A stretch of DNA of 1,364 nucleotides from Escherichia coli (GTDB taxonomy: Bacteria; Pseudomonadota; Gammaproteobacteria; Enterobacterales; Enterobacteriaceae), in assembly GCF_003334335.1 (NCBI RefSeq), contig NZ_QOWQ01000108.1; one strand, given 5' to 3'. Position 1 is the first letter of the stretch. Every line of letters begins with the position of its first letter. The notes beneath the pieces were generated by a model, which saw nothing but the letters and a program-made list of their open reading frames with translations, was not told the DNA's origin and made no database searches. A program made the position numbers and the translations under genes. Shown one piece after another: positions 1 to 1,364 of this stretch.

Positions 1-1364
1 GTATGCGCCCCGGTGTTATTCGTGGATTTGGTTCCGTAATCAAACGACGATGTGTTTTTCGTCCCCAAATCCGTACTGGATGCGCTGGCGCTGTGGGTGT
101 GCGATTTAATGCCGTCCTGTTCCTGAGACAATACGGCACGACCACTGGCGGGTTTGCCCTTAATCGTCCAGCCACGCATATCAGGGATCACGGCTGACGG
201 ATAAGCGGCTGCAAGTTTCGGGTATGCAGATTTGTCAAAAGTCTGCCCCTGCATCAGGGCATAGCCAGACGGAACGGTATCTGATGGCCACGGGATTGGT
301 GCGCCAGGCGGATAAAACTGCTCTGATGGCGTATAGAGTGAATAAACTGTACCGTCCGTTAACCCTTCCGGCTTATTAGCAGAATATGCTGGTGACGTAT
401 GAATCGTCACGCTGGCATTACTGGTATAATCCCATTGAATATTTACACCAGTCGCATAATTTCCGATTGCAACGTAAATATCGTAAGTATCACCAGATGT
501 ATTGACCCAGGCAAAATTTGTAAACCCTGTCGATGTGCGCTGCCATAAAGCACCAGTAATCCCCTTCGGATTACCATTACCTGCACGCAAAACAAGTTCA
601 GATATACCTGCCTGTTGAGGTGACCCCACGTTAAATCCCGCACCACCAATCAACGTAATTGAAACAACAGAACTCGCCTGTGGCATGGTTACCGTTGCTA
701 ATTTGAACCAACCAGCACCACCGCTGAATGACATTGTTGTTGAGTTAAGCGTACCAATATCTTTCGGCGTCAGTGTTATATCCGCTGAAAGCGCCTTACC
801 ATTCACCTTACGGGCAGAAGGTACCCGACCATTCGCATTATCATTAGCTGCTTTCACTGCTTTCGGTGTCGCGGCAAGCGTTTCAGATGCGCTGTTGGTT
901 GCACTACTGAGCTGGACAATTCCTTTTTGTGCTGTCGTAGCGTCCTGAGCAGTATATTTCCCGTTAGCAAGGTCATAGGCTGCCTTTACCGACTTTGGCG
1001 TTGCCGCCAGCATTTCAGATGTGCTGTTGGTCGCGTTGCTAAGCTGAACTATCCCTTTCTGTGCTGTCGTTGCATCCTGTGCGGTGTATTTCCCGTTAGC
1101 CAGCTCATACGCGGCCTTAACGGCTTTTGGCGTTGCCGCCAGTGACTCGGAAGTGCTGTTAGTCGCACTGCTGAGCTGTACTATCCCCTTTTTCGTCGTG
1201 CTCGCATCCTCAAGCGCCACGGCGGATGCAATATCCTCTGCCCGTTTTGCCGCTGTCTCAGCGCGCGTTGCCGCGGATTCCGCCGTACTTTTGCTCTGAG
1301 CTGCCGCCGTCGCACTGCCAGCTGCCTCTGTCGCCTTCGTGGATGCCGTCGTGGCGCTGCCCTT
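1..1364 (-). CDS. stf: Side tail fiber protein, lambdoid Stf family; internal fragment, incomplete at both ends (N-terminus beyond 1364, C-terminus beyond 1)
   Basis: Seen in sequence: the minus-strand frame with codons 1362-1364 down to 3-5 has no stop in 454 codons (bases 1-2 are a partial Thr codon). Translation begins [102 protein letters not shown]... and ends ...[99 protein letters not shown]. Established knowledge: KGIVQLSxATNS repeats, the NGKALSxDITLT motif, the tail-collar motif and HxH boxes are hallmarks of lambda Stf and related prophage side tail fibers (StfR/StfE-like) and the T4 gp37 distal fiber. Match is from memory, not from a search. Confidence 0.9.
3..104 (-). other. Start of the His-rich distal fiber region: HxH motif SHTHSA (87-104) and the terminal GAH(T) that probably opens a second H-x-H box
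   Basis: Seen in sequence: His codons at 99-101 and 93-95 (minus strand, H-T-H) and at 3-5. Established knowledge: repeated HxH boxes occur in the distal parts of T4 gp37 and lambda Stf, and coordinate metal ions in the gp37 tip structure. Only the first box lies inside the window. Confidence 0.55.
93..311 (-). other. Phage tail-collar-like domain
   Basis: Seen in sequence: [73 protein letters not shown]. Established knowledge: the pattern P-x-G-(W/Y)...(Y/F)P.L......PD(L/M)RG....G....(H-x-H) is the signature of the phage tail collar domain found in T4 gp12 and lambda Stf-like fibers. Assignment is by motif recall. Confidence 0.65.
315..746 (-). other. Gly/Thr/Ser/Asn-rich central domain of the fiber, function unassigned, probably beta-rich
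   Basis: Seen in sequence: translation [145 protein letters not shown]-richer DNA than the flanking stalk and repeat region. Structure is inferred from composition. Confidence 0.5.
753..806 (-). other. Conserved tail-fiber motif [18 protein letters not shown] directly after the repeat array
   Basis: Seen in sequence: aa 187-204 of the fragment. Established knowledge: NGKxLSxxITLTxxDxG-type motifs recur in long and side tail fibers of lambda, P2 and T4-like phages. Confidence 0.6.
846..1190 (-). repeat. Three tandem in-frame coding repeats of about 132 bp (44 aa): copy 1 at 1059-1190, copy 2 at 927-1058, copy 3 (partial, diverging after KAA) at 846-926
   Basis: Seen in sequence: copy 1 [44 protein letters not shown]; copy 2 [44 protein letters not shown]; copy 3 [27 protein letters not shown] then NDNANGR. 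Copies 1 and 2 are about 90% identical in protein but only about 80% in DNA, the differences being mostly synonymous third-position changes. Established knowledge: this resembles the phage tail fiber repeat of Stf-like proteins. Confidence 0.85.
1200..1364 (-). other. Ala/Thr/Ser/Lys/Glu-rich low-complexity segment of the fiber (aa 1-55 of the fragment), probably helical stalk
   Basis: Seen in sequence: translation [55 protein letters not shown]. Locally GC-rich DNA: 41 of 60 bases (about 68%) are G or C at 1261-1320, against about 35-50% in 421-720. A helical or coiled structure is inferred from composition only. Confidence 0.55.

Follow-up and report, generated by a model that had tools for sequence, protein, structure and literature searches.

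Steps in homology and synonymous-site composition along a lambdoid prophage side tail fiber gene of Escherichia coli

The window analyzed here, a stretch of 1,364 nucleotides from Escherichia coli (contig NZ_QOWQ01000108.1), lies within the side tail fiber (Stf) gene of a lambdoid prophage, and its GC content changes abruptly along its length. We consider it highly probable that the gene is modular and that this change is the footprint of joined modules of different ancestry. Window position 1 is the first letter of the stretch and the gene is on the minus strand, so that upstream in the gene corresponds to higher window numbers. Translation of the reverse complement in frame 0 meets no stop codon in all 1364 bases (454 codons), and no long open reading frame (ORF) is present in any other frame of the window. 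The window is 99.9% identical, with a sole mismatch at window position 193, to part of a 2976-nucleotide gene in E. coli Ecol_AZ155, the product of which (WP_046464134.1) bears the RefSeq name 'prophage tail fiber N-terminal domain-containing protein'.

The annotated gene order in Ecol_AZ155 is gpJ, Ail/Lom, the 2976-nucleotide fiber gene and, directly downstream, the tail fiber assembly gene tfa, which is the position of an stf gene. Nucleotides 1–908 of the gene, which are outside the window, are 85% identical to lambda orf-401, as expected for a lambda Stf N-terminus. Within the window protein, Pfam detects Phage_fiber_2 (PF03406) at amino acids 55–95, 99–139 and 143–183, followed by one Collar domain (PF07484) at amino acids 354–401, and the last 118 residues match the receptor-binding tip of T4 gp37 (PDB 2XGF, E = 2.3e-52). 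This is the Stf arrangement of Phage_fiber_2 repeats followed by a gp37-type collar and needle. Taken together, we assign the window gene to the lambdoid Stf class, and this class membership predicts that the product forms trimeric receptor-binding side fibers on the virion. A search of the full protein against NCBIfam assigned no family. The copy number of the repeat varies among alleles, with four copies in E. coli SF-088. The allele is common: in 1314 of 5426 complete E. coli genomes, among them O157:H7 EDL933, 042 and the type strain, at least 80% of the window is covered. The features of the window are listed in Table 1, in which GC3 denotes the GC content at third codon positions (GC1 and GC2 are used likewise for the first and second positions).

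Table 1. Features of the window, in gene order after the first row
Feature	Window position	Strand	Basis
Internal piece of a lambdoid prophage side tail fiber (Stf-type) gene, amino acids 408–861 of 991	1–1364	minus	Open frame and 99.9% identity to WP_046464134.1
Ala/Thr/Ser-rich shaft segment; lambdoid-specific backbone; holds the 68% GC peak	1203–1364	minus	GC2 0.8, Ala 33–43%; ~98% identity to PhiR26_1 Stf, 79% to lambda orf-401
Repeat R1, 44 amino acids, Pfam Phage_fiber_2; lambdoid backbone; GC3 0.57	1062–1193	minus	PF03406, E = 1.5e-19; Tandem Repeats Finder period 132; repeat register
Repeat R2, containing junction J1 (~1020–1049); GC3 0.52	930–1061	minus	MaxChi against PhiR26_1; identities to the P2-like gene of strain 165; IAI1 patch
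Repeat R3, distal half diverged; part of the low-GC3 block; GC3 0.36	798–929	minus	PF03406; similar to Mu tail fiber protein S (PDB 8JU3/5YVQ)
Linker ending in a conserved motif; junction J2 at ~690–700	700–797	minus	Reciprocal divergence of CP53 and GDSC2239PM/JL22
Central globular domain, predicted beta-sandwich; lowest GC3 (0.34); common to P1-like, P2-like, Mu-like and T-even fibers	320–699	minus	Identity to carriers; AlphaFold2 model
Junction zone J3, start of the collar domain	305–340	minus	High identity to several relatives begins here; divergent patch in JL22
Collar domain (Pfam Collar, window 162–305) and start of the HxH needle (window 75–104); widely shared gp37-type module; GC3 0.56	1–319	minus	PF07484, E = 1.5e-11; PDB 2XGF; 265 phage records

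In the phage collection, no single record covers 80% of the window, and the closest relatives change from one segment to the next. For window 966–1364, the best matches are the lambdoid siphoviruses PhiR68_2, PhiR26_1, SPF_0923 and mEp460 at 93–95%, with lambda at 80%. The P1-like Punavirus JL22 is absent among the best 40 records listed for this segment, to which its fiber gene aligns only at 73–78% over short repeat stretches. For window 320–965, JL22 is the best match (92% over 332–759), followed by Cyrano, phi458 and Yersinia phages at 75–77% and then by ST64B, SJ46 and T-even gp37 at 66–70%; no lambdoid phage in the collection carries this segment at high identity. Window 1–319 is matched by 265 phage records, among which lambdoid phages and JL22 show 95–98% identity and lambda 87%. 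Maps of high-scoring segment pairs and sliding identities over 20 codons are step functions along the gene. Within E. coli, the H-type fiber gene of a decayed P2-family prophage (strain 165, locus 829–2940) is 97.4% identical over window 1–1019; the distal block is thus carried by three kinds of backbone in this species, lambdoid, P2-like and P1-like. The segments of this one gene therefore have their nearest relatives in distinct phage lineages. Three records of the collection (MW057783.1, OR844957.1 and MT713136.1) stand out: 'Campylobacter phage CJLB-4' matches exactly like lambda, 'Enterococcus phage Efm 3-10' matches like Salmonella phage ST64B, and 'Aeromonas phage AP1' matches at 95% over 119 nucleotides where no feature is annotated. 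All three records are probably mislabelled or contaminated.

The central domain is shared by six carriers with amino-acid identities of 54–94%. Its nucleotide identity to JL22 is mostly 92–98% per 20 codons, that to Cyrano, phi458 and YpM_39 is ~76%, and that to gp37 of Sf24 is 68%. AlphaFold2, run on the small alignment of the six carriers, predicted an all-beta sandwich with a predicted local distance difference test score (pLDDT) of 77.7 and a predicted template modeling score (pTM) of 0.77; the other four of the five models had pLDDT values of 58–61. Among PDB structures, Foldseek ranked a domain of WceF, a tailspike-like protein, first (6TGF, E = 3.6e-7, query template modeling score (TMq) 0.62). 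With moderate confidence, we therefore predict that the central domain adopts a beta-sandwich fold resembling this WceF domain.

Pairwise breakpoint tests (MaxChi) and mismatch profiles of near-identical E. coli relatives placed three sharp junctions in the window, at ~1020–1049 (J1), ~690–700 (J2) and ~305–340 (J3). At J1, PhiR26_1 has 6 mismatches in 315 positions upstream of 1049 (~98% identity) and 16 in 84 in 1049–966, and it has no homology past 966; MaxChi placed the break at 1049, a result that none of 2000 permutations reached. The converse is found in the P2-family fiber gene of strain 165, which is 78% identical over 1020–1181 as against 97.4% further downstream. In IAI1, 21 of the 42 mismatches form a divergent patch at 930–1049, largely in R2. 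J2 lies at the conserved linker motif: CP53 has no mismatch in 690–929 and ~23% divergence in 370–689, and the reverse holds for GDSC2239PM and JL22, which diverge by ~1–3% below 700 and by ~20% in 700–759 and lack homology above 759, where their BLAST alignments end. J3 is five residues before the start of the Pfam Collar domain, with high identity beginning at 319 in PhiR26_1, at 305 in ev099 and CP53, and at 312 in lambda, whose match skips directly from the repeats to the collar. Breaks at 1105–1114 and 966–972 are seen in other E. coli alleles. Every junction is at a repeat or domain border. On one side of each the sequence is near-identical, followed by a zone of ~80% identity and then by unrelated sequence, which is the trace expected of a crossover in a conserved linker.

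Within the J3 zone, JL22 mismatches the window at 13 of the 30 positions in 310–339, just before the collar, with flanks at least 97% identical. GDSC2239PM does not have this patch, which may reflect either a short tract of gene conversion or a different linker. One apparent junction, at window 824 in E. coli EC0026B (100% identity over 600–824), was rejected as a module swap. EC0026B (locus 3314–3501) carries the same prophage in a much degraded state, in which a deletion fuses a remnant of J to the fiber gene at ~824 and mimics a recombination junction in BLAST.

Base composition also changes in steps. The GC content is 0.683 at 1261–1320, 0.350 at 421–480 and 0.45–0.48 across 481–720, exactly as quoted in an earlier note on this DNA, which was made from the sequence alone. 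For GC3, the best model with two change points sets its borders at window 959 and 296 and gives values of 0.60 (1364–960), 0.35 (959–297) and 0.58 (296–1). This signal was reached in 1 of 300 synonymous shuffles, in which synonymous codons were permuted among positions of the same amino acid with the protein fixed, and in 1 of 1000 whole-codon shuffles; the segment signal of total GC was weaker (23 of 1000 shuffles). When the borders were set by homology instead, GC3 was 0.594 (1364–966), 0.397 (965–760), 0.340 (759–320) and 0.566 (319–1). The difference between flanks and center, 0.22, was equaled in none of 20000 synonymous shuffles (Fisher p = 3.5e-6). The GC discontinuity is thus more than chance and resides mostly at synonymous sites. 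The P2-like carrier in strain 165 shows the same GC3 step, with 0.53 in its N-terminal part, 0.61 in the repeats and 0.41 in the shared block. The prophage's backbone genes have a higher GC3, 0.67 in J and 0.575 in lom, than the central module, which is low in all its carriers.

The likelihood profile gives the first GC3 step a support interval of ~1019–929, inside the repeat array, and the second, back up at ~296–320, an interval of 425–119. The earlier note had put the transition at ~750–850, where a GC3 step costs 3.9–5.0 log-likelihood (lnL) units; the main junction and step are instead in the repeat array, at ~960–1050. A homology junction near the suggested place does exist, namely J2, but it shows little GC3 contrast (0.39 vs 0.34). 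Likewise, the range of 740–1364 assigned to the whole discontinuity misses the second step, and the GC-rich stretch, described as the N-terminal stalk, corresponds to residues ~408–460 of 991 and is mid-shaft.

Steps in identity thus occur along the gene with steps in GC3 nearby. As the GC3 steps fall at or near homology breakpoints, the proposal of mosaic module assembly made in the earlier note is supported; the note had called for a recombination-breakpoint test on aligned homologs, and pairwise MaxChi against PhiR26_1 gave a break at 1049. It had also named two findings that would speak against a mosaic, namely uniform GC3 across the gene and the same nearest homolog, at similar identity, for both halves. 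Neither was observed: GC3 differs among the four homology-defined segments, and, once the same allele is set aside, the closest relatives change from segment to segment. The history that we favor would be as follows. A high-GC3 lambdoid shaft with the first repeat (1364 to ~1050) would have been joined to a distal block (~1020 to 1), which is itself a composite of a low-GC3 repeat and linker part (~965–700), the low-GC3 central beta-sandwich domain (699–320) and the high-GC3 collar and needle (319–1). These modules would have evolved in gene pools that differ in base composition, and their synonymous sites would not yet have equilibrated after joining. The joins may have arisen by homologous recombination inside short conserved stretches at domain borders, i.e., the Phage_fiber_2 repeat, the conserved linker motif and the start of the collar.

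Several points weigh against this history. The recombination mechanism is one that we infer from sequence patterns only. The GC3 change point is coarsely resolved: its best position, 959, is 60–90 nucleotides from J1, and moving it to 1049 costs 3.3 lnL units. In addition, low GC3 is not confined to the shared block, as it is also found in the alternative central module of PhiR26_1 (0.46), in the gene's own 3' end (0.33–0.39) and in tfa (0.44), and therefore a general property of distal fiber DNA could contribute to the pattern.

This last point bears on the idea that GC3 in the central and distal parts is held low by local selection or mutation bias acting on synonymous sites and is not a record of foreign origin. 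Possible causes would be translation kinetics suited to trimer folding or the avoidance of mRNA structure, and the borders would coincide because modules are folding units. Low GC3 does recur at the same position in non-homologous or divergent modules, namely the center of PhiR26_1, which lies between flanks of 0.54–0.55, and the CP53 variant (0.44). The values for the gene's 3' end and tfa agree with such local maintenance. However, the GC3 of the central module, while low in each carrier, tracks the carrier genome: it is 0.15 in gp37 of the T-even phage Sf24 as against 0.34–0.41 in temperate phages (JL22, 0.34; YpM_39, 0.35; Cyrano and phi458, 0.41). GC, GC1, GC2 and GC3 are identical between the reference and JL22 central modules despite 43 differences; since the net GC change over these differences is zero, the match between the two is a coincidence. 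Furthermore, the collar and needle, which also form a distal folding unit, have high GC3 (0.57), and the homology breakpoints are sharp. We therefore consider a purely local origin of the low GC3 improbable.

A related view is that the low GC3 of the distal modules is actively maintained, e.g., for co-translational trimer folding or to favor recombination, and is not only a foreign relic. That non-homologous modules in this position also have a low GC3 is in line with this, and the collar island stays high. We hold active maintenance to be improbable as well, if anything a shade more so.

Amino-acid composition was the confounder raised in the earlier note, which pointed to Ala codons: an Ala/Thr-rich shaft and an Asn/Ile/Tyr-rich globular domain of the same ancestry would differ in GC as a by-product of what they encode. 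This holds for the 68% peak, where GC2 is 0.8 and Ala makes up 33–43% of the residues, and composition predicts ~72% of the GC difference between the 60-nucleotide stretches at the two extremes (expected GC 0.652 vs 0.412). It does not hold for the segment-level step, of which composition accounts for ~35% (expected 0.544 vs 0.495, observed 0.586 vs 0.445). GC at codon positions 1 and 2 has no significant segment structure in the window, the observed value being reached in 444 of 1000 shuffles, and this result and the protein-fixed shuffles rule out amino-acid composition as the sole cause. The repeats provide an internal control: at the 26 positions with the same amino acid in all three copies, GC3 is still 0.69, 0.58 and 0.42 in R1, R2 and R3, respectively. 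Given also that the nearest relatives differ between segments, an origin of the GC shift in composition within DNA of one ancestry is very improbable indeed. Least probable of all is that chance alone produced the pattern in so short a sequence, for, despite the mere 454 codons and the wide support intervals of the change points, the signal was matched in few or none of the shuffles described above, the independently set homology borders split the same high- and low-GC3 segments, and the P2-like carrier shows the same step.

As for the surroundings of the gene, the host prophage in Ecol_AZ155 adjoins a truncated ompW and yciEFG and trpAB. The presence of the ompW pseudogene (locus 9976–10101) and of yciEFG-trpAB beside the prophage suggests integration at or in ompW. 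On the plus strand, antisense ORFs of 87, 72 and 71 amino acids are present at window 685–948, 927–1145 and 1084–1299, opposite the repeat and shaft region, and in lambda an antisense ORF, orf206b, is annotated across from stf in the homologous place. Those in the window probably result from the richness of the coding strand in Ala, Ser and Thr codons. Apart from the 132-nucleotide tandem repeat, only short repeats at chance level were found in the window, and an Rfam search of the window gave no match.

Exchange of stf among unrelated temperate and virulent phages is a well-documented case (De Paepe et al. 2014, PMC3945230), for which that paper cites Montag 1989, Haggard-Ljungquist 1992 and Sandmeier 1992 and 1994. 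The same authors showed experimentally that lambda gains stf/tfa DNA from the defective prophages Rac and Qin by homologous recombination at 88–95% identity, and they ascribed ancient stf exchange mainly to stf-associated invertases. Both the gene and tail-fiber mosaicism, documented since 1989–1994, are already known, and the latter is ordinary for phage tail-fiber genes.

The present case illustrates a textbook phenomenon cleanly and quantitatively; it has little import beyond annotation and opens no new question. It does define, for a very common E. coli allele, module junctions in conserved linkers at domain borders. From what is established for Stf and gp37, swaps of fiber modules would re-assort receptor-proximal parts onto different virion attachment domains and thereby change host range. 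With the same distal block on lambdoid, P2-like and P1-like backbones, the junctions are useful for predicting or engineering host range through module swapping.

Among known systems, the gene resembles lambda Stf (orf-401/orf-314) with Tfa in its position after J and lom and before tfa and in its N-terminal 908 nucleotides; the shaft, repeat and collar segments are 79–87% identical. It differs from lambda Stf in that lambda has no homolog of the central low-GC3 domain there and in repeat number and the 3' end. P1 S, Mu S and P2 H represent the classical horizontal exchange of tail-fiber segments (Haggard-Ljungquist 1992; Sandmeier 1992, 1994, as cited in PMC3945230). The likeness to these systems lies in JL22, which overall carries window 27–759 at 92%, in the P2-family prophage of strain 165 and in R3, which matches Mu S. 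Unlike in P1 and Mu, whose variable parts are in an invertible segment with an invertase, the annotation for 6 kb to each side of the Ecol_AZ155 gene contains neither an invertase nor an inverted alternative S/U pair; JL22, by contrast, has an annotated, oppositely oriented S/U pair. Because no invertase is annotated at the locus, we did not class the gene with the invertible-segment systems (Cin/Gin/Min). To gp37 of T4 and the T-even phages, the window is related through the collar and the start of the HxH needle and through the central domain, which shares 54% of amino acids with gp37 of the Tequatrovirus Sf24. The N-terminal attachment part and the virion context differ, the present gene encoding a siphovirus side fiber, and so does GC3, which is 0.15–0.18 in Sf24 gp37 and 0.34–0.57 here. 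The relationship to T-even gp37 is ancient, not recent.

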